Sequence record: MG252615.1
From: Escherichia phage vB_EcoS_HSE2
DNA: 41,317 bases
Reading direction: 5' to 3' (one strand)
The notes below the pieces were generated by a model that did no database searches, was not told the origin of the DNA, and saw nothing but the letters and a program-made list of their open reading frames with translations. Numbering within the stretch: position 1 is the first letter of the stretch; the number at the start of each line of letters is the position of its first letter. Positions 14,858 to 34,904 of the stretch are shown one piece after another. Both the position numbers and the translations under genes were made by a program.

Positions 14858-14886
14858 TTGACATTATGAAAATCTTCGTTTAAGAT
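14858..14886 (+). promoter_or_regulatory. Sigma70-type promoter pointing into the noncoding region
   Basis: TTGACA, 17 nt, TAAGAT; divergent from the 14814..14842 promoter. Confidence 0.45.
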
Positions 14887-15129
14887 GCTTCTATATCTTA
14901 GTTACTTTGATTCCTGTTCACCTTGTAAGAATGTTTAACCCGTGCGTCAAGCAAAGGGTTAAACACAGGCTTACTGAACATGAGAATTATCGTAACTTTC
15001 CTTCCTAAGTATCTCCGGTTGCCCTGGGCAAGCTCTATTCTCATCGGCGGCATATCTCTTAAGTATCTGATTTTCTTAATGTGCCGTAGATTCGCAACCG
15101 TAAAAATGTAACGATTATTGGGCAGGCTT

Positions 15130-15153
15130 AAGGCCTGCCCTTTAGTTACCAAG
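15130..15153 (+). terminator. Hairpin terminator-like element in noncoding region
   Basis: Stem GGGCAGGC/GCCTGCCC, loop TTAAG, then TTTAGTT. Confidence 0.4.
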
Positions 15154-15222
15154 TAATAAGAATAAAGGCACAACACTACCTGAAGAATCACAACGGCAAC
15201 GTAACCATTTTCAATGAATCTC

Positions 15223-15251
15223 TTGCACACCCCAACATAATAGGTTACTAT
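15223..15251 (+). promoter_or_regulatory. Middle-class promoter (conserved 30-nt family) with operator palindrome
   Basis: TTGCAC-ACCCCAACATAATAGGT-TACTAT; palindrome AATAGG-TT-ACTATT (15239..15252). Confidence 0.6.
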
Positions 15252-23186: not shown

Positions 23187-24680
23187 ATGGTTTCCGCAAA
23201 CATTAACGCAGGGCAAGGGCAGAACGTTAAAACCCGCCACCGCCAGTACGAAGAGTATTTCCCTAAGTGGCAGAAGGTGCGACATGCGCTTTCTGGCGAC
23301 CTGACATCGTATCTACGTGACGTCGGTAAGAATGAGCCGGACCCGGTTTACGGTCGCCAGCGTCAGGCTGAATACGAAGCGGGGGCAATTTGCTACAACT
23401 TCACCAAGCGAACGCTTTCAGGCATGGTCGGCAGCGTAATGCGCAAAGACCCCGAGATGATTATTCCGTCTCAGATGGAATACCTGACCACTAACTGTGA
23501 CGGGTCGGGCGTTGGCCTGTGGCAGCACGCACAGGATACTCTGTATGAGATTGATGCTGTTGGTCGCGGTGGTTTGCTGGTTGACGCCCCCGCGGTAGAA
23601 GTAGCTACCATGGCAGAGCAAAACGAGGGTTTACTAAACCCAACAATCGCTTTCTACACCGCAGAGAACATCATCAACTGGCGTCTCCAGCGCGTCGGGT
23701 CTGTTAATCGTGTGGTTATGGTTGTATTGCGTGAGGAATACGAGTACACCGATGGCGCGGATGAGTTCAGCCCCAACTACGGCGAGCAATACCGAGTCCT
23801 TGATATTTTCGAAGGCCAGTATCGCCAGCGTCTGTACCGCTTTAACCAGAAAGGTGCACTGATGGAAGGTGGCTATATCGAAATATTCCCGAAACTCGGT
23901 AATATTCCGGTCGGGGTGATTCCGTTCACATTCATTGGTGCAGGGAATAACGACTCAACCCCTGACGATGCACCTTTGCTGCCGTTGGCTGAACTAAACA
24001 TAGGACATTTCCGCAACAGCGCAGACAATGAGGAGTCCAGTTTCGTTGTAGGTCAGCCAACTCTGTTCATCGCCCCGGGTGAGAACATGAGCATGGAACA
24101 GTGGAAAGAAGCCAACCCACACGGCGTGCGCATGGGGTCGCGTTCAGGCCATAACATTGGTTACGGCGGCAATGCGTTTCTGGTCCAGGCCGGTGAGAAC
24201 AACCTAGCCAAGCAGAACATGTTGGATAAAGAGAACCAGGCAATCCAGATTGGTGCACAGCTTATTACCCCGACGCAGCAAATCACCGCGGAATCGGCAC
24301 GCCTGCAACGTGGTGCCGACACGTCCGTTATGGCGACAATTGCACGTAACGTAAGCATGGCGTATACCGATGCGCTGAAGTGGGTTGCTGGTATGCTTGG
24401 GCTTAGTGACGGCACTGAAATTGAGTTCAAACTGAACATGGAGTTCTTCCTGCAACCAATGACCGCCCAGGACCGCGCTCAGTGGATGGCGGACATTAAC
24501 GCCGGCTTGCTACCCGCCACCGCTTATTATGCTGCGTTGCGTAAGGCCGGTGTAACTGACTGGACCGACGAGGATATTCAGAACGCTATCGAAGACGCGC
24601 CGCTGCCGTTAGGTGCAAATACTCAGGTAGCGGGGGAGATTCCGCCGTCGGCGCAGCAACAAGATACCATTCAGCGGTAA
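23187..24680 (+). CDS. Portal protein
   Basis: About 497 aa directly after terL; conserved gene order. Confidence 0.7.
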   Translation: MVSANINAGQGQNVKTRHRQYEEYFPKWQKVRHALSGDLTSYLRDVGKNEPDPVYGRQRQAEYEAGAICYNFTKRTLSGMVGSVMRKDPEMIIPSQMEYLTTNCDGSGVGLWQHAQDTLYEIDAVGRGGLLVDAPAVEVATMAEQNEGLLNPTIAFYTAENIINWRLQRVGSVNRVVMVVLREEYEYTDGADEFSPNYGEQYRVLDIFEGQYRQRLYRFNQKGALMEGGYIEIFPKLGNIPVGVIPFTFIGAGNNDSTPDDAPLLPLAELNIGHFRNSADNEESSFVVGQPTLFIAPGENMSMEQWKEANPHGVRMGSRSGHNIGYGGNAFLVQAGENNLAKQNMLDKENQAIQIGAQLITPTQQITAESARLQRGADTSVMATIARNVSMAYTDALKWVAGMLGLSDGTEIEFKLNMEFFLQPMTAQDRAQWMADINAGLLPATAYYAALRKAGVTDWTDEDIQNAIEDAPLPLGANTQVAGEIPPSAQQQDTIQR

Positions 24681-24688
24681 GTTCACAT

Positions 24689-24712
24689 ATAGCCCCGAAA
24701 GGGGCTTTCTTA
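24689..24712 (+). terminator. Hairpin terminator/attenuator after portal
   Basis: Stem AGCCCC/GGGGCT with GAAA loop, then TTCTT. Confidence 0.5.
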
Positions 24713-24716
24713 TAGT

Positions 24717-25793
24717 ATGCTATTAACTTTAGCGCCACAGGGTTTATCTATGAGCTTACTTACATCCCTAATCAGCCACCAGATTTGGCTGCAACGCACC
24801 GCATCCGGCGAAGTGAAAGACCTCGCACCGTTCGTCCAGGAGATGCGGGACGAAATAAAACGGCAGGTGCTGTTATTTGGCGACGACGGGCGAAGCACCG
24901 CGCGACTGAATAAACTGTTACGCGACCTCGAAGAAGCACTGGCAGGACTTACCGGTGACTGGCAAACAAAACTGACAGAAGACCTTAAGGAACTGGTGGC
25001 ATATGAGGCTGAGTGGAACGTAAAGACGCTGACGGCTAACGTTAACGCGGAATTTGTTACGCCTACCGCAGAACAGGTGTGGGCCGCTGCCGAGTTTCAA
25101 CCCTTATCGTTAAGCGACAAACCTGTCGACTTCACCAAGCTGATGTCTGGCTGGGGTGAAACCGAAGTCGCGCGCCTTGTAACCGGCGTTAAGATGGGCT
25201 TCGTACAAGGCCAAACCACACGGCAGATTGTTAAGAATGTCGTAGGCGCTGGTGGGCTGGCGGACATTTCAGAACGCAACGCGGCTACAGTAATCCGCAC
25301 TGCGCTGTCCCACGTATCCAACGAAGCCCGCAACGAGACGTACCGCCAGAACGACGACATCATCGAGAAATACGAATGGGTGTCAACTCTGGACAGCCGT
25401 ACAAGCACGATTTGCAGAGCCAGGGACGGGATGACGTGGGAAATTGGTAAAGGGCCAATGCCCCCCGCCCATCCGAATTGTCGAAGTACCACTGCACCAG
25501 TAATCAGTTCCGAGTTCGACTTCCTCGATAAAGGCGCAAAACGCGCGGCTAAGGGCGCAGAAGGCGGTACTCAGGTAAGCGCAGACACCACTTACTACGA
25601 GTTCCTGAAACAACAACCAGCATGGTTTCAGGATGAAGCACTCGGCCCTGTTCGCGGTAAGATTTTCCGTAACAGCGGTATATCGCCGGAAGAGTTTCGC
25701 GTAATATCTGTAGATGGTTTCGGGAATCCACTGACACTTAAGCAGATGGCGGAACTCGATAAACGTGTTGCTGAATATCTGAAAGGGGATTAA
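24717..25793 (+). CDS. Head morphogenesis protein (Mu F / SPP1 gp7-like)
   Basis: Conserved DSRTS..C...HPNCR segment typical of this family; start may be the internal ATG at 24750. Confidence 0.65.
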   Translation: MLLTLAPQGLSMSLLTSLISHQIWLQRTASGEVKDLAPFVQEMRDEIKRQVLLFGDDGRSTARLNKLLRDLEEALAGLTGDWQTKLTEDLKELVAYEAEWNVKTLTANVNAEFVTPTAEQVWAAAEFQPLSLSDKPVDFTKLMSGWGETEVARLVTGVKMGFVQGQTTRQIVKNVVGAGGLADISERNAATVIRTALSHVSNEARNETYRQNDDIIEKYEWVSTLDSRTSTICRARDGMTWEIGKGPMPPAHPNCRSTTAPVISSEFDFLDKGAKRAAKGAEGGTQVSADTTYYEFLKQQPAWFQDEALGPVRGKIFRNSGISPEEFRVISVDGFGNPLTLKQMAELDKRVAEYLKGD

Positions 25794-26254
25794 TGATGGG
25801 CTTTTTCAAAGTAACTGATGTACCGTCACGCCGCGTAGTCCAGTACGCCCGCGTGTCTGGTTCTGGCGAGAACGTGGTGTTTATTGAAGATGAAAGTGTA
25901 CTGGGATCACCTGTAGACGATATGCCGTTTGCAGACAAGACCGGTATCGCGCTACCAGCGGCGGGTATGCTTTATGAGATTCCGTATCTGGCGGACGCTG
26001 GCGACGTGTATTTCTCTGTGCAGCCGCAGGGCGCTGAACTGGCGGACGGCAGCGCAACCATCACTGTAGACGTTAAGGCTGGCAAAGCACCATATGCGTT
26101 GACCTGGTACAAAGACGGGAAGGAAGTGGTAAACGCCCCGGAAGAGGCTCTGTCTCTGACGGTTAACGCGGTGGGTGAATACTTCGTTAAAGTCACCGAT
26201 GCCGATGGGGTAGAGGCCGTCAGTAAAGCGGCGAAGGTTACTAAGCCGGAATGA
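25793..26254 (+). CDS. Structural protein with C-terminal Ig-like domain
   Basis: C-terminal YALTWYKDGKEV...EYFVKVTDADG resembles bacterial Ig-like folds. Confidence 0.45.
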   Translation: MMGFFKVTDVPSRRVVQYARVSGSGENVVFIEDESVLGSPVDDMPFADKTGIALPAAGMLYEIPYLADAGDVYFSVQPQGAELADGSATITVDVKAGKAPYALTWYKDGKEVVNAPEEALSLTVNAVGEYFVKVTDADGVEAVSKAAKVTKPE

Positions 26255-26255
26255 T

Positions 26256-26285
26256 AAAAAGCCCCGCTATGGGGCTTTATTTTTA
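26256..26285. terminator. Bidirectional intrinsic terminator
   Basis: Stem AAAAGCCCC/GGGGCTTTT, loop GCTAT, A-run before and T-run after. Confidence 0.7.
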
Positions 26286-26354
26286 TATGAACATCGCGGT
26301 GATAGCCGCAGCCGATACCCACAAAACAAAATAAAACATCACACTATTTGTCAT
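26283..26354 (-). CDS. Hydrophobic peptide (23 aa), third gene of lipoprotein cassette
   Basis: Verified by hand: MTNSVMFYFVLWVSAAAITAMFI; ATGA overlap with lipoprotein stop. Confidence 0.25.
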   Translation of the reverse strand: MTNSVMFYFVLWVSAAAITAMFI

Positions 26355-26695
26355 TTGCATTTCTCGTCGTATGTTTGTTGTAACTGCGACAGACGATTAC
26401 CGGCTGTCATCTCGTCCATAGAAGGCCCGGCGCCCGTGTCCATAAAGAACAGCGGAACAATCAGGAATGCGCCTGTAACACCGAGTACAACGTTAGTACC
26501 TATTTGCTTATTAACACGGTGCGTAGCGTTGGCTTGAGCTTGTTTTGTCGTGGCGATTCTCGATAGTAACTGATTACATGTTGCCGTTGTATCCCCTGCC
26601 TGATAAACCTGTAAAGCCGGGTCTGGCAACGACCTTACGCAACCACTCAAACAAACGGCTACAACACCCGCTACTGCTAATTTAATATATTTCAT
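26351..26695 (-). CDS. Lipoprotein (114 aa) in a moron cassette; candidate superinfection-exclusion / receptor-masking factor
   Basis: Signal peptide with lipobox L-S-G-C; opposite strand to flanking head genes; own promoter and terminator. Confidence 0.55.
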   Translation of the reverse strand: MKYIKLAVAGVVAVCLSGCVRSLPDPALQVYQAGDTTATCNQLLSRIATTKQAQANATHRVNKQIGTNVVLGVTGAFLIVPLFFMDTGAGPSMDEMTAGNRLSQLQQTYDEKCK

Positions 26696-26793
26696 AGTTC
26701 ACCATTACCCGTGTCAATTTCACCAATACCACTACAAGCCCAAAGAAACATCACCGCATCAACTGCAATTACTACTGAAATAACGACTAACAT
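26692..26793 (-). CDS. Small transmembrane peptide (33 aa), first gene of lipoprotein cassette
   Basis: Verified by hand: MLVVISVVIAVDAVMFLWACSGIGEIDTGNGEL; GAGGAGG Shine-Dalgarno; ATGA overlap. Confidence 0.3.
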   Translation of the reverse strand: MLVVISVVIAVDAVMFLWACSGIGEIDTGNGEL

Positions 26794-26820
26794 GACGGCC
26801 TCCTCGGTTCGATAGAATGA

Positions 26821-26849
26821 ATAGTACCCTATTATATTGGGGTGCGCAA
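26821..26849 (-). promoter_or_regulatory. Middle-class promoter driving the lipoprotein cassette
   Basis: Minus strand TTGCGC-ACCCCAATATAATAGGG-TACTAT; 30-nt core identical to the promoter at 35165..35193. Confidence 0.6.
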
Positions 26850-26915
26850 ACTATTTGTTTATGTATTCCAGTTATTCCACCAAATTGTAAATATTGGAAT
26901 AAACTATTCGAATAG

Positions 26916-26944
26916 TTGACTTTTCACCAAAAATGTGCTAAGCT
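26916..26944 (+). promoter_or_regulatory. Sigma70-type promoter preceded by 16-bp palindrome AACTATTCGAATAGTT
   Basis: TTGACT, 17 nt, TAAGCT; palindrome at 26902..26917. Confidence 0.45.
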
Positions 26945-27150
26945 CCACCTGAGCTTGTGAAGTATGAACAAGCGACCGCGGCGTGGCAGGTAACGGAGCC
27001 GGACGTTAAGTCCGAGTGTAGTTACGCTGACGCGTTCGGAAGGGCCATACTCTATTGCTTGTGTAAAAAGTAACTGGTTTACTGAGATTACGCCGTTTCT
27101 ATGTTTAAATGATAAGGACTAGCGCCCCGCTTTATGGCGGGGCTTTACTT
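26945..27150 (+). ncRNA. Candidate small RNA or structured leader (about 200 nt) between promoter and terminator-like hairpin
   Basis: No ORF longer than 9 codons; starts after the 26916..26944 promoter and ends at hairpin 27124..27143 plus U-rich tail. Confidence 0.3.
27121..27150 (+). terminator. Terminator-like hairpin just upstream of the spanin RBS
   Basis: Stem GCCCCGC/GCGGGGC, loop TTTATG, then TTTACTTAT. Confidence 0.45.
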
Positions 27151-27167
27151 ATCGAGAAAGGAGAAAC

Positions 27168-27554
27168 ATGAATCTTAAAGCAACTGTCGTAGCGGGAGCA
27201 TGTTTCATCATCCTGGCTTACGCACACGGCATCTACCAGTACCGCAGCGGCTGGAACGAAGGCCGGGCGAATCTCGTTTCGCAGCAACAGCAGGAAGCAC
27301 AGGCTGAGTTAGCGAAGAAAACACAACGGCAGCAGCAGGACGAATCAAAGGCCGCAGCCGCTGGCAACGAAGGCAAGACGAAATCAGAGGTGATTACCCG
27401 TGAAGTCGTTAAGTACATTAAAACACCTGGCCGTAGCGTGTGCACTTTTGACGATGCTCGCGTCCTGCTCAAGTCCCGCGCCGTCGCAAACGCCAATTCC
27501 ATCCCCGGATACGACGATGATGCAGCCGCCGTGCAAACTGGCGCCGCCAAGTAG
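27168..27554 (+). CDS. i-spanin (Rz-like)
   Basis: N-terminal TM segment followed by Gln/Ala-rich coiled-coil periplasmic region; embedded lipoprotein ORF in +1 frame. Confidence 0.6.
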   Translation: MNLKATVVAGACFIILAYAHGIYQYRSGWNEGRANLVSQQQQEAQAELAKKTQRQQQDESKAAAAGNEGKTKSEVITREVVKYIKTPGRSVCTFDDARVLLKSRAVANANSIPGYDDDAAAVQTGAAK

Positions 27555-27663
27555 CGACGCGGACGAGGATTTGGCTATCGACGTTCAGAACGCCGAATGT
27601 GTGCGGCAACTGAGGCTGAAAGTGTTCATGCTGCAGGATTACGTGAGGAATATTCTGGAATAG
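27400..27663 (+). CDS. o-spanin (Rz1-like outer-membrane lipoprotein), overlapping Rz
   Basis: Lipobox L-A-S-C followed by Pro-rich mature region; starts inside Rz in another frame and extends beyond its stop. Confidence 0.55.
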   Translation: MKSLSTLKHLAVACALLTMLASCSSPAPSQTPIPSPDTTMMQPPCKLAPPSSDADEDLAIDVQNAECVRQLRLKVFMLQDYVRNILE

Positions 27664-27742
27664 TTGCCTTGCATGTTGGAATAATTTATTCTTGACATGT
27701 AAATCCGGGTGGCCCGGGTTCCAACGTCCAGGGGACATACTG

Positions 27743-28369
27743 ATGAGCGAAGAAGTGAAAGACGAAACTATCGAACAACAAGAGACTAAGACCACGTTTA
27801 CCAAAGAAGAAGTTGACGCGCTGGTATCCGGTCTTAAAGCTAACAACGAGAAACTCTTGTCTGAAAAGAAAGCTGCTGCCGCTGCCGCTAAAGAAGCCGC
27901 AGATGCGAAGCTGAAAGCCGAACAGGAACGCGCAAAACAGAACGGCGAACTTGAGGCATTCGAGAAAACGTTGCGCAGTCAGTATGAGCCAGTACTCGCC
28001 GAGAAAGACGGTAAGATTAGCAAAATGGCTGAGCGTATCCTCGGCGCAGAACGTAAATCAGTTATCAGCCAGTTGTCTGGCATGTTGATTGATGAGAGCG
28101 CAGCAGATATCATCGCTATGATGGTCAAGACCGAATTTGACGGCGATGACGTTGTGACCAAGTTCACAGGTGCAGACGGTAATGTCATCACCACCGACGC
28201 AGAGCAATTTAAAAAGTATCTGCGTGAGCACAAAGCATTTTCGCATCTGATTAAAGCAGATGCAGCAACCGGCGGCGGGGCTTCCGGTAACAAGAATTCT
28301 ACTGGCGGGGCCGGTGGTGCGGACGTAATCCAGCAAAAACTTAACGCCAAATACGGCAAACGAGGATAA
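27743..28369 (+). CDS. Scaffolding protein
   Basis: Ala/Lys/Glu-rich helical protein immediately upstream of major capsid gene; AGGGGA Shine-Dalgarno. Confidence 0.55.
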   Translation: MSEEVKDETIEQQETKTTFTKEEVDALVSGLKANNEKLLSEKKAAAAAAKEAADAKLKAEQERAKQNGELEAFEKTLRSQYEPVLAEKDGKISKMAERILGAERKSVISQLSGMLIDESAADIIAMMVKTEFDGDDVVTKFTGADGNVITTDAEQFKKYLREHKAFSHLIKADAATGGGASGNKNSTGGAGGADVIQQKLNAKYGKRG

Positions 28370-28375
28370 CAGAAT

Positions 28376-29344
28376 ATGTCTCTGTCAGATATGAAGGTTT
28401 ATAACGACGACATCGTCGGTACTACTATCGAACTTCTTGGCCAGAAAACTGACCAGTTTAACGCAGCCTCCGGTGGTGCAATTGTACTGTCTACCGCTTC
28501 ATGGCGCGGTGACTTCTCCCGTGAGTCTTTCTTTAACCAGATTGCCTCCGCTAAACGCCGCGTCGACCGTTACGCCGCTATCGCGTCTCAGGCAGCTACC
28601 GCGCTGACTCAGGGCGAGCATGTAGGCGTTAAAGTCGCTGGCGGCTTCGGACCGGTACTGTTCGAGCCTGCGCAAATGACCTGGCTTAACGAAGACCCGG
28701 CAAGCGCGATTCGTGCTATTTCCGAAGGCTTCTCTGACGCGCTGTTAGCTGACCAGCTTAACACTGCTGTTGGTGCCGCTGTTGCCGCGGTCTCCGGTCA
28801 GACAGCACTGGTTAACGATGTATCTGCATCCGCAGGCCTGTCTCTGAACGTGTTGAACAACAGCCACGCTAAATTCGGCGACCAGTCTCAGTTGCTGATT
28901 ACCGACATCATGACCGGCGCTGCTTACCACACTCTGGTGGACAAAGCGCTGACCAACGCAAACCAGTTGTTCGTTGCCGGTAACGTTATGGTTGTTGATG
29001 TCCTCGGTAAGCGTTATGTAATCTCCGACATCCCTGCACTATACGAAGCTGGTACCCCGAACAAGACTAAGGTCCTGTCCGTAGTTGCAAACGGAATCAT
29101 CGTAGATAATGCTTCTGACATTATCAGCAACATTGACACCAGCAACGGTAACACCCGCATCCAGACCACCTGGCAGGCGGACTACAGCTTCGGCCTGAAA
29201 CTGAAAGGCTATAGCTGGGATGTTACCAACGGCGGTAAATCTCCGCTGGATGCAGAACTGTTCACTGCGTCCAACTGGGACAAAGCTGTTGCCGAGAACA
29301 AGCACACCCTCGGTACTCTGGCAATCGCCGACGCAGACCTGTAA
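28376..29344 (+). CDS. Major capsid protein
   Basis: 322-aa ORF between scaffold and a strong terminator; position and size fit an HK97-fold capsid. Confidence 0.7.
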   Translation: MSLSDMKVYNDDIVGTTIELLGQKTDQFNAASGGAIVLSTASWRGDFSRESFFNQIASAKRRVDRYAAIASQAATALTQGEHVGVKVAGGFGPVLFEPAQMTWLNEDPASAIRAISEGFSDALLADQLNTAVGAAVAAVSGQTALVNDVSASAGLSLNVLNNSHAKFGDQSQLLITDIMTGAAYHTLVDKALTNANQLFVAGNVMVVDVLGKRYVISDIPALYEAGTPNKTKVLSVVANGIIVDNASDIISNIDTSNGNTRIQTTWQADYSFGLKLKGYSWDVTNGGKSPLDAELFTASNWDKAVAENKHTLGTLAIADADL

Positions 29345-29363
29345 CACGGTTAGTAGTAAAAAC

Positions 29364-29386
29364 AAAGGGGCTTCGGCCCCTTTTTA
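29364..29386 (+). terminator. Rho-independent terminator (UUCG tetraloop hairpin)
   Basis: GGGGC-TTCG-GCCCC flanked by AAA/TTTTT. Confidence 0.7.
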
Positions 29387-29401
29387 CTAGGAGAAATTAA
29401 A

Positions 29402-29569
29402 GTGGAAATTAAATACGTACCAATGCCGATTACCGTTGAGCAGAAGCGAGAATATAACCGTCAGGGGTTCCGTGTGGTAGATGCTCGTTTCGCGCCAGAA
29501 GGTGCCGTGGTAGAATCGACTAAAGAAGAGACACCACGCCGCCAGCGCCGGGTTAAATCAGAGGAATAA
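29402..29569 (+). CDS. Hypothetical protein (55 aa, GTG start)
   Basis: AGGAGA 7 nt upstream of GTG; basic C-terminus. Confidence 0.35.
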   Translation: MEIKYVPMPITVEQKREYNRQGFRVVDARFAPEGAVVESTKEETPRRQRRVKSEE

Positions 29570-29572
29570 TTT

Positions 29573-30085
29573 ATGCCGCTAATCGTGGAAACGGGGGCAA
29601 TCGTCCCGAATGCCGACAGTTACGTTAGTCTGGCTGACGCCCGCGCGTTAGCGGCTAATTATGGCCTTGAGCTACCTGCGGATGGTACCGCCGCCGAAGT
29701 CGCCTTGCGCAACGGCGCAACTTATGTCGGGCTTGCGGAACCGCAGATGTGTGGTCGTCGTGTATCCGCCGAACAGTCTCTGGCATATCCTCGCACCGGG
29801 GTAACGTTAAACGGATTCCCGGTAGCGGATAATGTTATCCCGAAACAGGTAATTCTTGCGCAGGTAATCGCCTCCGCCACATATGGCGCGGGCACGGAAG
29901 TGCGGGCCAACTCTGACGGGCGTTCCGTGCAGACTGAGCGTGTTGAGGGCGCAGTAACAGTGACATACTTCAACAACGGCAGCAGTGGCGCTACAACCGC
30001 GATTACCGCTGCGGACGACGCCTTACGCCCGTTACTGTGTGGTGGTCTTAACAATGGCTTCTCATTTAATGTGTACCGGGGTTAA
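29573..30085 (+). CDS. Putative head-tail connector/adaptor protein
   Basis: Gene order after capsid; size 170 aa. Confidence 0.45.
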   Translation: MPLIVETGAIVPNADSYVSLADARALAANYGLELPADGTAAEVALRNGATYVGLAEPQMCGRRVSAEQSLAYPRTGVTLNGFPVADNVIPKQVILAQVIASATYGAGTEVRANSDGRSVQTERVEGAVTVTYFNNGSSGATTAITAADDALRPLLCGGLNNGFSFNVYRG

Positions 30086-30087
30086 AA

Positions 30088-30702
30088 ATGGCGAAGACTA
30101 AATCAGAGATGTTCACCCTCATCGGCGCGAATCTCCCCGATAACACCAACGGTGCCATCACACCCGCGAAGCTACGCGAGGTAATGACGCAGATGGCGGA
30201 CTCACCTATTTACGCCACTCCCGGTGTTAAAGAGGTTGAAGTTCTCCGCGCAGCGTCGACCGTGATACAAGTGCCCACCGCAACGAACACGGCGTTGCAG
30301 TTAACTTTTGGCTCCGCTCAGGGCAGCGCGTCTGACCCGGTAATGATTAATGCCGCGGGGCTGGTCACATTCAACGCCGCAGGTAACTACGCCGTTCGCA
30401 TCAAGTTACAGGCTGGTCGTACAGGGGCAAGTGGCACGTCCATACTGTTATCGCGCATTCTCCTTAACGGTGCTCAGTACGGCTCGCCCGCCGCCACGAA
30501 ACTGGTAAGCGCGGACACCACAATCCCGATTGAGTCCCGCGTAGTTATTAACCCCACCGCGGGCCAGACGTTTGCCGTTCAGATTATGCGAGATAGCGCC
30601 GGAAGCAACTTCGGAGGCGTATACCCGCAAGCGGCTACCGTAACCGCATGGGGTACAGCGCCGTCCGCATTACTGGTTATCTCTAGACTGGAGGCCGCCT
30701 GA
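30088..30702 (+). CDS. Hypothetical structural protein (204 aa)
   Basis: Gene order in head/neck module. Confidence 0.4.
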   Translation: MAKTKSEMFTLIGANLPDNTNGAITPAKLREVMTQMADSPIYATPGVKEVEVLRAASTVIQVPTATNTALQLTFGSAQGSASDPVMINAAGLVTFNAAGNYAVRIKLQAGRTGASGTSILLSRILLNGAQYGSPAATKLVSADTTIPIESRVVINPTAGQTFAVQIMRDSAGSNFGGVYPQAATVTAWGTAPSALLVISRLEAA

Positions 30703-31061
30703 TGAGCACCGCTTTCAGTAAACGTATGCAGGGCGTTGGTACACGCCTGTTAACCAAATTCGGTAGCACAGTATCTCTTGTTCGTGCTGGCTCTAAAGTG
30801 TGGGATGAAGTTCTCGGTGAGTACGTCTGGTCCGACGATGAAGTGCTGCCGTTGAAGGCCGTTCCGGTTCCGGTAAACGCTGGGCTGGTGAACGGTACGA
30901 CGATTCAGGCTGGTGACATGATTGTTAAAGCGGATTACAGCGTCGTTCCGAAGATGGAAGACAAGGTGCAATTCGGCGGCGAGCAATGGTCTGTTGTCGC
31001 CATTGAGAAGAAGATGGTTAACGATGATGTCGTGGCCTACTTTATCCAGGTGAGAAAATGA
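30702..31061 (+). CDS. Putative head-tail joining (head closure) protein
   Basis: Gene order and size (119 aa). Confidence 0.4.
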   Translation: MSTAFSKRMQGVGTRLLTKFGSTVSLVRAGSKVWDEVLGEYVWSDDEVLPLKAVPVPVNAGLVNGTTIQAGDMIVKADYSVVPKMEDKVQFGGEQWSVVAIEKKMVNDDVVAYFIQVRK

Positions 31062-31453
31062 GTTTCGCGCTTGATGTCTCTAAGTTCGTGGAAAAGGCGA
31101 AGAAGAATCCCGAGAAGGTGATGCGTCAGGTGTCTATCAAGCTGTTTTCCGCTATCATAAAGGCGAGTCCGGTGGATACAGGCCGCTTTCGTATGAACTG
31201 GATGGCATCTGGCGGTACTCCTGCTTCCTGGATTACGGACGCCACCGATAAATCAGGAAATACGGCAGCCGGAAACGCTACAAGTTTCGTGCTGAAAGCC
31301 GCTGACTGGCACGAGTTCACGCTGACAAATAATCTACCGTATGCGCAACGGCTGGAGTATGGTTGGTCGCAACAGGCCCCCGCCGGGGTTGTCAGGACTA
31401 ACGTGTCCCGCTTCCAGCAACTCATTAACGAAGAAGCCAACAAGGTGAAATGA
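31058..31453 (+). CDS. Neck/tail-completion protein (HK97 gp10-like)
   Basis: Motif PVDTGRFRMNW typical of this family. Confidence 0.5.
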   Translation: MSFALDVSKFVEKAKKNPEKVMRQVSIKLFSAIIKASPVDTGRFRMNWMASGGTPASWITDATDKSGNTAAGNATSFVLKAADWHEFTLTNNLPYAQRLEYGWSQQAPAGVVRTNVSRFQQLINEEANKVK

Positions 31454-31866
31454 TGGGCTACTTTGAGGACTTAACAAAAGCGTTCGATGTGCCGCTGGTA
31501 GCATTCGGGGCTGCAAACAGCATCAAGGTTGCGCTTGAAAACATCGACGCGCCGACGTCAACCGATACGCCGTATCTGGCAAGTTACATGTTGCTGGCAG
31601 ATACCGAGCAGGCGGATTTGTTCTTCACGGAACAACGCTCAGGTGTTTATCAGGTCGACATTAACTACGCATCGGTGAAAGGTAGCGCGCCAATCAATAA
31701 AATGGCAGACTTACTTAACACGGCGTTTAAAGCAGGTAAGTCATTTTCGCGTAACGACATCTGCGCCGAGGTTCAATCGGTTAGCCTGGGGCCGCTGATT
31801 GTAGAAAACGGATGGGCCAAACGACCATTGTCAATTAACTTTATTGCATTCACCAAGAGGCTGTGA
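31450..31866 (+). CDS. Putative tail terminator protein
   Basis: Gene order immediately upstream of major tail protein. Confidence 0.4.
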   Translation: MMGYFEDLTKAFDVPLVAFGAANSIKVALENIDAPTSTDTPYLASYMLLADTEQADLFFTEQRSGVYQVDINYASVKGSAPINKMADLLNTAFKAGKSFSRNDICAEVQSVSLGPLIVENGWAKRPLSINFIAFTKRL

Positions 31867-33035
31867 ATATGGCTACAACTCCTTTTAAGGGCGCGAATAC
31901 CGCGCAATTCTATGTGGCGGAAGTGACCCCCGGCGTAACACCAAGTAACCCGGTATGGTCGCCGCTGCGTAACACAGGCGGCGTTCCTGCCATCACCCGT
32001 GACACGCTGACCTCCAACGAACTGGACGGCAGCCGCGAAACTACATCCATCCGCACCGGTAACAAGCAGGTTAGCGGTGAATATGCTATTGAGCTTAGCT
32101 CGAAAAGCCAGGATGACTGGCTAGCCGGGGCTTTAGGCTCTACGTGGCAGGCTGGCGTATCTCTGTCAGGGCTATCGATTACCGTCGCACCGGCTGGCAA
32201 GACGTTCACACGCGCTACCGGCAGTTTTATCACTGACGGAGTTGGGGTAGGCGACCTGATTGCGTTTACCGACTTAACAGGCGATAACGCAAAACCATTT
32301 ATTGTTACTGCAGTAACGGATACGGTTGTTACTGGTGCAGGCATCCAACACACCCTGACCACCGGGACAAAAACTAGTAAGGCTAAAACTGGCGACACGT
32401 TGGAAACCGGTAACGCGTGTAAGACGTTCTCTATCCTTACCTGGTACAAAGGCCAGTGCGGCGGTACTGATGCGTACACGTTAACCAAAGGCGTGGAAGT
32501 TTCTGGTTTTACCATCGAACAGGCTGTTAACGCGATGGTAACTGGCAGCTTCCCATTCATCGGTCGCAGTCAGGAGATTCTCACCACGCCGCCGACCGGT
32601 TCCAACTTCTCATCTGTTACTTTTGGTGATGAGCCGTTCTCTTCGGTTGACGTTTCCGTATTCGATGGTTCTACACCGTTGCGTTGCGACAGCCTAACCA
32701 TCACCAACGACAACAGCGCGTCCGCACAGTTCGAACTCGGCAACACTAACGTTGCGTTTGTGGAGCGTAGCCGCGCAGCTAACACCTTTTCCATCTCCGG
32801 TAAGTTGTACGACATGGCGATGATTCAGAAGTTTATCAACGAGCAACAGGTTGAGATTAACTCTATTCTGGCGGGGGTAAACGGGGCTATGTCTTTCAGC
32901 CTGAAACGCGCAGAGCTTACGGCGGTTACGCCAGAAATATCTGGCCCGGAATCAATTACCCAAAGTATAGAAGGGCAGTCCACAGGCAACCAGTATCAGT
33001 CGTCTATCGTAATTCAACGTATTAGTTACGTATAA
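31863..33035 (+). CDS. Major tail (tube) protein
   Basis: 390-aa Thr/Gly/Ser-rich ORF followed by strong terminator; upstream of chaperone and tape-measure genes. Confidence 0.6.
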   Translation: MNMATTPFKGANTAQFYVAEVTPGVTPSNPVWSPLRNTGGVPAITRDTLTSNELDGSRETTSIRTGNKQVSGEYAIELSSKSQDDWLAGALGSTWQAGVSLSGLSITVAPAGKTFTRATGSFITDGVGVGDLIAFTDLTGDNAKPFIVTAVTDTVVTGAGIQHTLTTGTKTSKAKTGDTLETGNACKTFSILTWYKGQCGGTDAYTLTKGVEVSGFTIEQAVNAMVTGSFPFIGRSQEILTTPPTGSNFSSVTFGDEPFSSVDVSVFDGSTPLRCDSLTITNDNSASAQFELGNTNVAFVERSRAANTFSISGKLYDMAMIQKFINEQQVEINSILAGVNGAMSFSLKRAELTAVTPEISGPESITQSIEGQSTGNQYQSSIVIQRISYV

Positions 33036-33062
33036 AACTAAGGCCCCGAAAGGGGCCTTTTC
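33036..33062. terminator. Bidirectional terminator, near-identical to the one at 3361..3387
   Basis: AAGGCCCC-GAAA-GGGGCCTT plus T-run; A-rich upstream. Confidence 0.7.
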
Positions 33063-33293
33063 TCACTCATCAATGTTACTCCTGTATTCTCGTAACTTCT
33101 CCAGGCTTTCAATTGCTTCTGCTAAGTCGGTTCCAGTGTCCTTGTGCCCTCGAAGGCCCATACACAATAGCTTCTTCAATGCGTGCTGTAACGCAGGGTC
33201 GCGGATGTCGAAAGCACGTAGCACATCGTAAACGTCTACAGTCATAGTGCTGCCGTGAGTGTTTGTCATTGTGCGGTTGTATTTTGAAGTCAT
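33063..33293 (-). CDS. Hypothetical protein (76 aa), last gene of leftward cassette
   Basis: ORF track. Confidence 0.4.
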   Translation of the reverse strand: MTSKYNRTMTNTHGSTMTVDVYDVLRAFDIRDPALQHALKKLLCMGLRGHKDTGTDLAEAIESLEKLREYRSNIDE

Positions 33294-33306
33294 AAATCAC
33301 TTTTCC

Positions 33307-33777
33307 CTACTCATGGTTTTCATGGAAACCGTATTTACTCTCGGCGGCTTTACGCGCAGCAACCGCTACATCAAAATCGTCGTAAAGCCCTAAATGCACT
33401 TGTTTGTAGTTAACTTTTATAAACGCGCGCCACTTACCCGCGGCTTTGTGGAAACTTACGCCTGTAGCCCCGGATTTATTTATCTTTCGCATAGTTTTAT
33501 TTTTACTGTTCCCTGTATTGTCGGTGGCGCGTAGATTTTCTATTCTATTGTCTAGCCTGTTATGGTTTATGTGGTCTATTTGAGTTTTCCTGTCTAAGTT
33601 GCATTTATTATAAAGACACCATGCTATGCGGTGGACATACACTGTTTTACCACCCATACCGCAGCACAGATAACCTCTTACACCAACCGTACCAACCTCA
33701 GCACCAGTAGATAACCTGGTAACCCTCCCAGTCTCAGGGCAGTATTTAAATTGTTTTGAAACATCAAGATATTTCAT
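33307..33777 (-). CDS. HNH homing endonuclease with AP2 domain (paralog of 9184..9675)
   Basis: HNH motif IDHINHNRLDNRIEN; AP2-like GATGVSFHKAAGKWRAFIKV...AARKAAESKYGFHENHE. Confidence 0.75.
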   Translation of the reverse strand: MKYLDVSKQFKYCPETGRVTRLSTGAEVGTVGVRGYLCCGMGGKTVYVHRIAWCLYNKCNLDRKTQIDHINHNRLDNRIENLRATDNTGNSKNKTMRKINKSGATGVSFHKAAGKWRAFIKVNYKQVHLGLYDDFDVAVAARKAAESKYGFHENHE

Positions 33778-34904
33778 CTTAGCATCTCCGGTGAGATTGA
33801 AAGCCTACCTACTTCCCCGAACTCTGAACTATAGGTTATGACATTAGCGGACCTCTTAGACATCCACCCGCCGCGAGAAGCATATGCATCTTTCGCCGCG
33901 AGAGTGCGATGCTGCTCCACTACCATATTCCTACTTTCTACGATCTTTTGGTGGTGGAGATGCCCAACATGTGCATAACTGTACTCGCTTTCGCCGAATG
34001 CTTTTCTGAACTTAGCTATCATAATGGGTTCGACCACCTCAAACCGGCATTTATGCCCGTGTGTAAAGAACAGAGTCGTTTTGCCGTGTTGCACCATCTT
34101 GTAAACATCCGGCGACGTATCGACGAACACACGCGGCTCATTGTCATATAGCGTGCTGAACATCTCAGCTAACCAAATCATTCCGCTTTCGTCGTGGTTA
34201 CCTTGAACGATTAAAAGTTTTACTGTGTGATGCTTAACCAGCGCCATATCGACAACACGACGCACCATACGAATCATGTAGCGAACTAGTTTCTGATAGC
34301 GAGTATCGGCGTCTAACACATGACGCGACTCAGGGGTAACGGCATCAAGACTATCGAAGTGCGCGAAGTCTCCTAGCAGATTAATAACTCCTGTTCCCGC
34401 GTCCGGTGCTTTCTGAAACGCCGCGTCGAACCATCGAGAGAACAGGTCTTCTGCAATCTTCATGTCCCAGTCGTCGCCGCTCTCGTCTGCCCATGCAAGC
34501 ATACCGAGATGGAAATCAGACACAGTGTAAAGATTGAGAAGTTTATCGTCGCGTTTGGCGCGAGTCGCTTTAACAGGCGCAACAGGTGTAATCTCTGACT
34601 TCATGCCTTCAATTACGGCTTTCATCAACTCGACCTGACGTTCAGCATCGGTGTCAGTCTTAACCCATTGCAACTTAGTGTTGCCGAACTCGTCCACCAG
34701 GGACGACGTGCCTTTAATCTTGTAGCCGTCCGGCACAAGGTGACTAACGTCGCGCCCGTGGCCTACACCTTTCTTAGCCAGCTTCGCTTTACGGATACGA
34801 ATAACGCGGTCTGAGATGCCGTATTTACGGGCGATATCAATAATCTTCATCCCGGCGTTCAATTCTTCCTGTAACTGTTCGTCGGTTATTTTCTTCTGGG
34901 CCAT
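33774..34904 (-). CDS. Calcineurin-like metallophosphoesterase with N-terminal HTH domain
   Basis: Phosphoesterase motifs DFHLG, GDFAHFD, GNHDE, THGH, GHLHH in canonical order; N-terminal IIDIARKYGISDRVIRIRKAKL helix-turn-helix; GAGGAAG Shine-Dalgarno. Confidence 0.65.
   Translation of the reverse strand: MAQKKITDEQLQEELNAGMKIIDIARKYGISDRVIRIRKAKLAKKGVGHGRDVSHLVPDGYKIKGTSSLVDEFGNTKLQWVKTDTDAERQVELMKAVIEGMKSEITPVAPVKATRAKRDDKLLNLYTVSDFHLGMLAWADESGDDWDMKIAEDLFSRWFDAAFQKAPDAGTGVINLLGDFAHFDSLDAVTPESRHVLDADTRYQKLVRYMIRMVRRVVDMALVKHHTVKLLIVQGNHDESGMIWLAEMFSTLYDNEPRVFVDTSPDVYKMVQHGKTTLFFTHGHKCRFEVVEPIMIAKFRKAFGESEYSYAHVGHLHHQKIVESRNMVVEQHRTLAAKDAYASRGGWMSKRSANVITYSSEFGEVGRLSISPEMLR

Follow-up and report, generated by a model that had tools for sequence, protein, structure and literature searches.

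In phage lambda, the late promoter PR′ gives rise to a 194-nucleotide (nt) '6S' transcript that ends at the terminator tR′, which is read through under Q and is followed immediately by the lysis genes S, R, Rz and Rz1; this leader RNA is not known to have a conserved structure or role. In phage HK022, the put RNAs bring about cis-acting, protein-independent antitermination through the zinc-binding domain of the β′ subunit of RNA polymerase. Here we analyze a leader of related layout in Escherichia phage vB_EcoS_HSE2 (sequence record MG252615.1; the whole stretch of 41,317 nt is called the window below), which lies on the + strand between a predicted promoter (26916..26944) and the spanin genes Rz and Rz1. 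We find that this leader is a non-coding, structured RNA supported by covariation. Sequence comparison identifies the window as a Kagunavirus (Guernseyvirinae) genome, as the 1 kb around the leader shares 98-99% identity with Shigella phage phiSD1 and with Escherichia phages BUCT823 and SZH-1 and matches 299 phage records, all of them Guernseyvirinae-type siphoviruses of Escherichia and Salmonella.

The conserved 5′ RNA module of the leader spans 26948..27063 (+ strand) and is the sole match in the window of a covariance model, R1, at 122.9 bits. It starts with a 5′-terminal hairpin, P1 (26953..26973, + strand; GCUUGU/ACAAGC around a 9-nt loop), which appears both in single-sequence folds and in RNAalifold predictions, and continues with a long irregular hairpin, P2 (26976..27039, + strand), closed by CCG/CGG and capped by an apical stem, CGGAC/GUCCG. 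A conserved and mostly unpaired sequence, GGAAGGGCC-N5-CUAUUG (27038..27057, + strand), was identified in alignments, which show GGAAGGG retained in nearly all clades; it marks the 3′ limit of the module where the latter is duplicated, as described below. An A/U-rich linker follows (27064..27110, + strand); it contains the motif GAUUACGCCGU and, at 27069-27083, a small hairpin. The K1, K2b and Jerseyvirus leaders also have GAUU(N)GCCGU.

A first-pass annotation of the window had noted several inverted repeats in this stretch and had proposed covariation analysis in relatives, and that analysis reveals a conserved, covarying fold. In an alignment fitted to R1, 84.7% of cells were paired, compared to 29-41.5% when the partners were slid; both partners vary in 14 of the 29 pairs, a number that 5 of 500 shuffles reached, and the covariation score was 0.223 compared to 0.03-0.06. 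Changes on both sides affect all six pairs of the P2 apical stem. RNAalifold, applied to 13 Kagunavirus-type sequences, recovered P1 and all three segments of P2 at -22.5 kcal/mol; two positions showed three pair types, and the apical pairs varied. Folded singly, five Kagunavirus variants, Jerseyvirus and two phiEap-2-type leaders all give the same P1-P2 layout, with AAGGGCC after P2. The P1 equivalents are ACGCU/AGCGU in Jerseyvirus and GUUC/GAAC in the phiEap-2 type, and P1 begins no more than about 3 nt from the predicted 5′ end in all clades folded. Because G-U pairs are conserved, the fold exists on the + strand only. R1 recovers every known copy of the module at 20-139 bits, and a search of 0.7 Mb of unrelated viral and bacterial DNA returned nothing above 15 bits except two true copies.

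Two other candidate pairings were rejected. A helix between AAGUAUG in the P1 loop and CAUACU (27047-27052), present in the minimum-energy fold, is uncompensated in relatives that have CAUAGU, CAUAGG or CAUAUU, and it is also missing from the second module copy. Pairing of the 5′ end with the sequence before the Shine-Dalgarno element, suggested by RNAalifold with apparent compensatory changes, was at chance level: its duplex energies were no better than those of shuffled 5′ ends in five of six representatives (fraction of shuffles as good, 0.05-0.96). The shared ACTTATCGAG is accounted for by homology to the transcribed start of a repeated TTGCAC..TACTAT promoter family.

The leader is widely distributed: 180 phage records of the Kagunavirus type carry it, as do 269 of the Jerseyvirus type and about 13 of the phiEap-2/Cornellvirus type. 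Conservation of the region in relatives, on which the first-pass annotation had made its proposal depend, is borne out: the 270-bp leader is at least 95% identical in 172 of the 180 phage records, and it remains 93.5-95.5% identical where the nucleotide identity of the spanin genes drops to 68-85% (L035, L036, L038, L049). Jerseyviruses carry a diverged homologue in the same place, with ACCGCGG, UUCGGAAGGGCC, UAUUGCUU, GAUU.GCCGU and the hairpin in common, and a more diverged version that retains CGGAAGGG is present in Enterobacter phage phiEap-2, Salmonella phages GRNsp27 and FSL SP-031, and Hafnia phage TS33. A search of 5,426 complete E. coli genomes did not find the leader. A pattern scan of 185,579 species genomes gave 18 matches, of which two were real, both on short phage-like contigs: L310, a 6.2-kb contig of a 'Bacillota MAG' (metagenome-assembled genome), at 97 bits, and L319, a 738-bp 'Taishania pollutisoli' scaffold, at 62 bits. 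The leader also occurs at 96% identity in a 44-kb plasmid record of Kagunavirus size (CP088689.1), and all three are probably mis-binned, contaminant or plasmid-deposited Guernseyvirinae phage DNA. Two loose pattern scans of viral contigs (ACCGCG..TYCGGAAGG; TTATTCCAGTTATTCC) returned mostly chance hits among the matches listed, with a few second copies, and served as negative controls only.

R1 found no match in Vibrio phages with related capsids, in Pantoea phage AH01 or in Salmonella phage Shemara. The last two have a different structured 5′ part before their spanin genes (L296, ~1000-1315, and L297, ~1000-1310, respectively), consisting of a long hairpin with an apical GGCC-GUAA-GGCC and joined to a 3′ part of the phiEap-2 type. 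This combination of a swapped 5′ part with a common 3′ part makes the leaders of the subfamily look modular.

The promoter that would drive the leader was named in the first-pass annotation, and all of its elements can be read on the + strand: a -35 hexamer TTGACT (26916-26921), a 17-nt spacer and an extended -10 element TGcTAAGCT (26936-26944) make up a predicted sigma-70-type promoter with its transcription start at G26951. It is the sole match of its kind in the window. A generic promoter scan did not call it because its -10 hexamer fits at three of six positions, for which the TG extension compensates. The TGn extension and a TAnnCT hexamer are retained in three clades (TAAGCT, TACGCT and TAACCT), and the authors of the fBC-Eco01 study independently predicted the same promoter and the same terminator, the latter with ARNold. 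The 16-bp palindrome and three ATTCCA/TGGAAT motifs that had been reported upstream were also found. The motifs are operator-like repeats (26864..26901), with TATTCCA at 26864 and 26873 and an inverted TGGAATA at 26895-26901; the palindrome, AACTATTCGAATAGTT, was confirmed by self-match at 26902-26917, contains two inverted TATTC half-sites and overlaps the first two bases of the -35 hexamer. It is perfect in the Kagunavirus type only; L029, Jerseyvirus and phiEap-2 have degenerate forms. The window contains 12 copies of TATTCCA compared to 4.1 expected, a count attained by none of 100 shuffles, and the motif clusters in two places only, at the leader promoter and at 27656-27683, before the scaffold gene. 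Copies are retained around the homologous promoter of Jerseyvirus and phiEap-2-type phages.

At its 3′ end, the leader closes with the GC-rich hairpin and U-rich tail that had been described just before Rz. The hairpin (27124-27143, + strand; GCCCCGCU-UUAU-GGCGGGGC, -16.5 kcal/mol) has eight pairs, seven of them G-C, and a 4-nt loop, and five of the first eight bases of its tail, UUUACUUAUC, are U. The Kagunavirus-type hairpin thus has the form of an intrinsic terminator, a GC-rich stem-loop followed by a U-rich tract, and it ends 14 nt before the Rz Shine-Dalgarno element (AAGGAG, 27158-27163, + strand) and 25 nt before the Rz start codon. Together with the hairpin at 15120-15140 described below, it is the top-ranked + strand terminator-like site between 14500 and 34000. 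It is also the tip of an extended stem-loop, P5 (27111..27153, + strand), in which lower helices GAUAAG/CUUAUC and UAG/UUA flank the hairpin and the U-rich tail (27144-27152) forms the 3′ strand. An extended P5 stem of about 17 bp, with interruptions, is present in every clade. The window has GAUAAG/CUUAUC as its lower-helix flanks, Jerseyvirus has UAUACG/CGUAUA and the phiEap-2 type has GUAAU/GUUAC; the GC-rich hairpin of the 14858-15165 cassette, described below, likewise tips a longer stem, whose flanks are GUAAC/GUUAC (15108-15152). The GC stem of P5 carries compensatory changes in three lineages (C-G to U-A in L026, C-G to G-C in Jerseyvirus and G-C to A-U in L044). The conserved feature is therefore a long stem just 5′ of the Shine-Dalgarno element. 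Intrinsic termination here is plausible, but it may not be the ancestral role of P5.

The gene order constrains how this hairpin could work. Rz (27168-27554, + strand; PHROG 2536, E = 1.5e-54) begins with ATG at 27168 and encodes the i-spanin, and the overlapping Rz1 (about 27517-27663, + strand; PHROG 5672, E = 4.5e-30) encodes the o-spanin; annotations in relatives agree for both. They are the first genes 3′ of the leader and are followed by the scaffold and major capsid genes. Since transcription from upstream meets a bidirectional terminator (26258-26278) and opposing genes, and there is no promoter between the hairpin and Rz, the spanin genes would have to be transcribed through 27124-27143, and the hairpin would then have to be leaky or overridden. 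Both termination and read-through at the hairpin are thus predicted from the sequence. Neither minimum-energy nor centroid folds contain a competing anti-terminator helix, so the attenuator proposed in the first-pass annotation found no alternative fold to operate it. Its accompanying idea, that the leader times spanin expression, is not supported, in view of the same result and also of the downstream genes: from Rz1 to the end of the capsid gene, the scan called no terminator-like hairpin, and transcription of the operon headed by the leader may continue through the scaffold and capsid genes.

Further evidence against a spanin-specific role is that many sister Kagunaviruses have the module twice: about 11.6 kb upstream on the same strand, a second copy of P1-P2, extending through to GUCUAUUG, stands behind a promoter with 24-28 of 29 bases the same. 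This copy directly follows a divergently transcribed, excisionase-like regulator gene and heads a long rightward block of small early genes, holins, endolysin, terminase and portal, with no spanin gene downstream, which argues that the module belongs to the promoter and not to the spanins. It comes in two sub-types, and compensatory changes in P2 set both apart from the spanin copy. The leader therefore looks like a general 'start-of-operon' cassette and not a spanin-specific timer. At the corresponding site, the window has a different leader of the same layout: a cassette at 14858-15165 (+ strand) with a TTGACA-17-TAAGAT promoter, about 230 nt free of open reading frames (ORFs), and a hairpin (15120-15140, -17.1 kcal/mol) with the tail UUUAGUUACC. 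Phage Jersey carries the window's cassette type at this site. Second-copy leaders contain a (CTCA)n microsatellite that varies from 3 to 7 units by phage (L299, ~540-560; L300, ~540-575; L301, ~540-560), and the module of Escherichia phage BEU33 (L302, 419-529; R1, only 37 bits) is truncated and rearranged: the downstream promoter region is joined to P1 and the first part of P2, apparently as a scar of recombination.

In its layout, the leader resembles the lambda PR′-tR′ region: a promoter, approximately 200 gene-free nt (26951 to about 27150), a terminator, the lysis genes Rz and Rz1, and morphogenesis genes beyond, with a terminator that must be overridden for late expression. Unlike in lambda, the leader fold is conserved, and the holin and endolysin genes are located away from the spanins in this genome type. 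A boxA (CGCUCUUA or GCUCUUUA) beside a boxB hairpin was not found, and GCTCTT is absent from 26951-27167; the nearest resemblance to boxA, ACUCUAUUG at 27049-27057 (CUCUAUUG), is weak, and its first three, boxA-like bases vary among relatives. HK022 put consists of two related copies of ~70 nt, each with two stem-loops, after the promoters of terminator-containing operons (PMC9378689). The leader is like put in being a promoter-proximal RNA of two stem-loops with a terminator-like hairpin after it, in starting no more than about 3 nt from the predicted transcription start with terminator-like hairpins at 27124 and downstream, in standing, in sister Kagunaviruses but not in the window, as two related copies at the heads of long terminator-containing operons, and in that no N or Q protein was recognized among the 20 early-region ORFs compared with PHROGs. 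It is unlike put in the size of the module (about 90-115 nt versus about 70 nt), in its single copy in the window, and in serving a late/structural operon of a virulent siphovirus. Membership in the put family was rejected, as R1 run with filters off on HK022 24000-34000 gave a best score of 6.2 bits (E = 2.8). Thus, the leader appears to be similar in layout to lambda PR′-6S-tR′ and HK022 put, and not a put homologue.

Searches of catalogued RNAs were negative. Rfam release 15 gave no match at gathering score over the whole window; the best E-value in 26700-27300 was 1.1 (11-16 bits compared to thresholds of 35-120), and nine homologous loci from all clades gave nothing at E ≤ 0.1. We found no description of this leader RNA in the literature, and the sole Kagunavirus RNA sequencing paper that we found, on a time course of vB_Eco_K1B4, gives gene-level classes only (PMC12645636).

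Taken together, these results favor a reading in which the region is a non-coding, cis-acting promoter-leader-hairpin cassette that heads and gates a late operon, a reading to which we assign about an even chance. Under this model, a weak, TG-extended sigma-70-type promoter, flanked by TATTCCA repeats and probably dependent on a phage regulator, would start transcription near 26951. The first ~115 nt would fold into P1 and P2, followed by single-stranded GGAAGGGCC..CUAUUG, and about 60 nt downstream P5, with its GC-rich tip and UUUACUUAU tail, would terminate transcription intrinsically but incompletely, 25 nt ahead of the Rz start codon. Some polymerases would stop at the hairpin and leave a ~200-nt RNA, and the others would continue into Rz/Rz1 and perhaps on into the head genes. 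P1-P2 would most likely act in cis, on the RNA that carries it or on the complex transcribing it. Its effect could be to help polymerase past the hairpin and later terminators, as HK022 put or lambda nut do, and it could also stabilize the 5′ end of the messenger RNA (mRNA). The more specific proposal, that P1-P2 is a new promoter-proximal RNA family, with no sequence relationship to HK022 put, that reprograms E. coli/Salmonella RNA polymerase, alone or with a small phage protein, to pass terminators throughout the long rightward operons of virulent Guernseyvirinae phages, is possible but unlikely.

Several observations weigh against this cassette model. Promoter use, the RNA 3′ end and read-through are all deduced from sequence. 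RNAalifold on the all-clade alignment returned the apical helix only, at -2.1 kcal/mol, and support for the fold across clades therefore rests on the model-fitted alignment and the single-sequence folds; folding of the whole leader gives a modest z-score of -2.3, close to the -2.0 of the opposite strand. The U-tract is poor in Jerseyvirus (UUAGCGUAU) and in the phiEap-2 type (UGUUACG), with three U in eight bases, so that P5 may have a conserved function other than termination. Comparison of 20 early-region ORFs with PHROGs, in a genome whose ORFs mostly lack an assigned function, recognized no Q-family or other antiterminator or RNA-binding protein, and no Q-like gene is annotated in phages EM1 or Jersey. 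Finally, the window has one module copy only, as does phage Jersey.

The coding capacity of the leader was also examined. The first-pass annotation had placed no ORF over 9 codons in it, which is correct for ATG starts only: a 38-codon GTG ORF occupies 26957-27073 (+ strand), and a 20-codon ATG ORF (27109-27171) is also listed. In relatives, a 36-codon ATG ORF is present and is annotated as a hypothetical protein in GenBank records, including those of fBC-Eco01 and phiWAO78-1; gp08 of Jersey is annotated at a different position. If this 36-38-codon ORF encoded a peptide, its presence in most Kagunavirus copies, with a common stop codon despite an internal single-base indel, would be explained. 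Against this, the variable columns among 32 distinct Kagunavirus-type leaders fall evenly on codon positions 1, 2 and 3 (11, 12 and 9 of 36 each); single-base indels within the ORF change the start codon and N-terminal frame among relatives; the longest ORFs of the L029, Jerseyvirus and phiEap-2 leaders lie in other frames and at other positions; and the start codon has no Shine-Dalgarno element and is located in the P1 loop. Moreover, the substitutions compensate one another in the RNA stems while altering amino acids, and the 38-codon ORF has no PHROG match. We judge this ORF to be non-coding; the small-protein reading is largely refuted and keeps next to no weight. The non-coding transcription unit proposed in the first-pass annotation is in turn supported by the covarying structure and by the terminator-like hairpin before Rz.

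The remaining alternatives accept the RNA or the promoter and assign them another function. A discrete small RNA (sRNA), which was one of the two proposals of the first-pass annotation, would act in trans by base-pairing with host or phage targets or by titrating a protein, with read-through into Rz being incidental. A promoter and a terminator-like hairpin do bracket about 200 nt, the structure covaries, and the conserved unpaired GGAAGGGCC could be a seed or protein-binding site. Spanin expression nevertheless requires read-through of the hairpin, the second copy in sister phages has no canonical terminator after it, and no complementary phage target exceeds 11 nt, which is chance level. The tail has only three consecutive U, unlike the U-tails of typical Hfq-dependent sRNAs, and a usable U-tract is missing from the Jerseyvirus and phiEap-2/Cornellvirus-type leaders, which confines a terminated sRNA to the Kagunavirus type, although P5 could be a processing site that frees the leader in the other clades. 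We regard a trans-acting sRNA as unlikely. Processing is the core of another reading, in which P5 is an RNase III-type site and P1 a 5′ stabilizer, so that the leader sets mRNA half-life and translation and not transcription. RNase III processing stems are found in T7 early mRNAs and in the lambda N leader, and 5′-terminal stem-loops protect E. coli mRNAs from RNase E, as in the ompA leader. Like the T7 sites and lambda N leader, P5 is a long interrupted stem immediately 5′ of a ribosome-binding site, and all clades keep this stem of about 17 bp, including those that lack a U-tract, the sequence of the lower helix varying among them; P1, like ompA-type stabilizers, is a 5′-terminal hairpin and begins about 3 nt or less from the predicted 5′ end in all clades. 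Seventeen interrupted base pairs are short for RNase III, however, and P2 and GGAAGGGCC, both conserved, have no counterpart in those systems and are left unexplained, and we regard a processing and stabilizing leader as unlikely too. The last of these readings is a DNA-level or priming element, in which the promoter and structured G-rich transcript, followed by A/T-rich DNA, would form a replication origin or primer transcript comparable to T4 or T7 origins or ColE1 RNA II. Such an element would account for the joint duplication of promoter and RNA at sites of diverging gene orientation: the two are inherited together, both copies are found at such sites, and A/T-rich sequence does follow the module. 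Covariation that maintains RNA pairing, including strand-specific G-U pairs, points to a folded RNA and not to a DNA site or R-loop; the single copy in phage Jersey lies inside a co-directional gene block, and neither iterons nor an adjoining initiator gene were seen. An origin or primer is thus very unlikely.

Cassettes consisting of a promoter-proximal leader and terminator are a known kind of element; this family and its exact activity appear to be new. The leader RNA is uncatalogued, covaries, is present in roughly 460 phage genomes and is often mis-annotated as a hypothetical protein; the 36-38-codon 'genes' within it should not be called. Guernseyvirinae (Kagunavirus, Jerseyvirus and Cornellvirus) are among the phages most often isolated for therapy and biocontrol of E. 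coli and Salmonella, yet their gene regulation is essentially undescribed, and the leader offers a concrete handle on late-operon control. If P1-P2 acts as put does, it would constitute a second, independently evolved system of RNA-based processive antitermination and a compact part for synthetic biology. If the leaky-terminator cassette is correct, it would explain the dosage of spanin and head genes after a mobile minus-strand insert that interrupts the structural operon.

That insert (26268-26817) separates a Hoc-like head decoration gene (25793-26254) from the leader and is hypervariable in relatives, with 17-34% column identity. Here it contains two minus-strand genes (26351-26793), one for a lipoprotein-like protein of 114 amino acids, which has a signal peptide with LSGC and matches PHROG 13472 (function unknown), and one for a hydrophobic peptide of 33 amino acids; this position is taken by a DNA methylase in phage EM1 and is empty in phage Jersey. 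A scan for transfer RNA and transfer-messenger RNA genes gave no match. A promoter-like repeat, TTGCRCAC-N14-TACTATTCAYT, occurs four times in the window, at 15223 (+), 16584 (+), 26849 (-) and 35193 (-), and is the 'phage promoter' consensus published for fBC-Eco01 (PMC9825357). Because the copy at 26849 faces leftward into the minus-strand genes, 26810-26944 would be a divergent promoter region. Beyond Rz1, the intergenic interval before the scaffold gene (27656-27715) contains two TGGAATA repeats, a TTGACA without a recognizable -10 element and a hairpin, CCGGGTGGCCCGG; this interval is 96-100% identical in most relatives, and the neighboring scaffold gene, which exists as two alleles, is ~63% identical in most.

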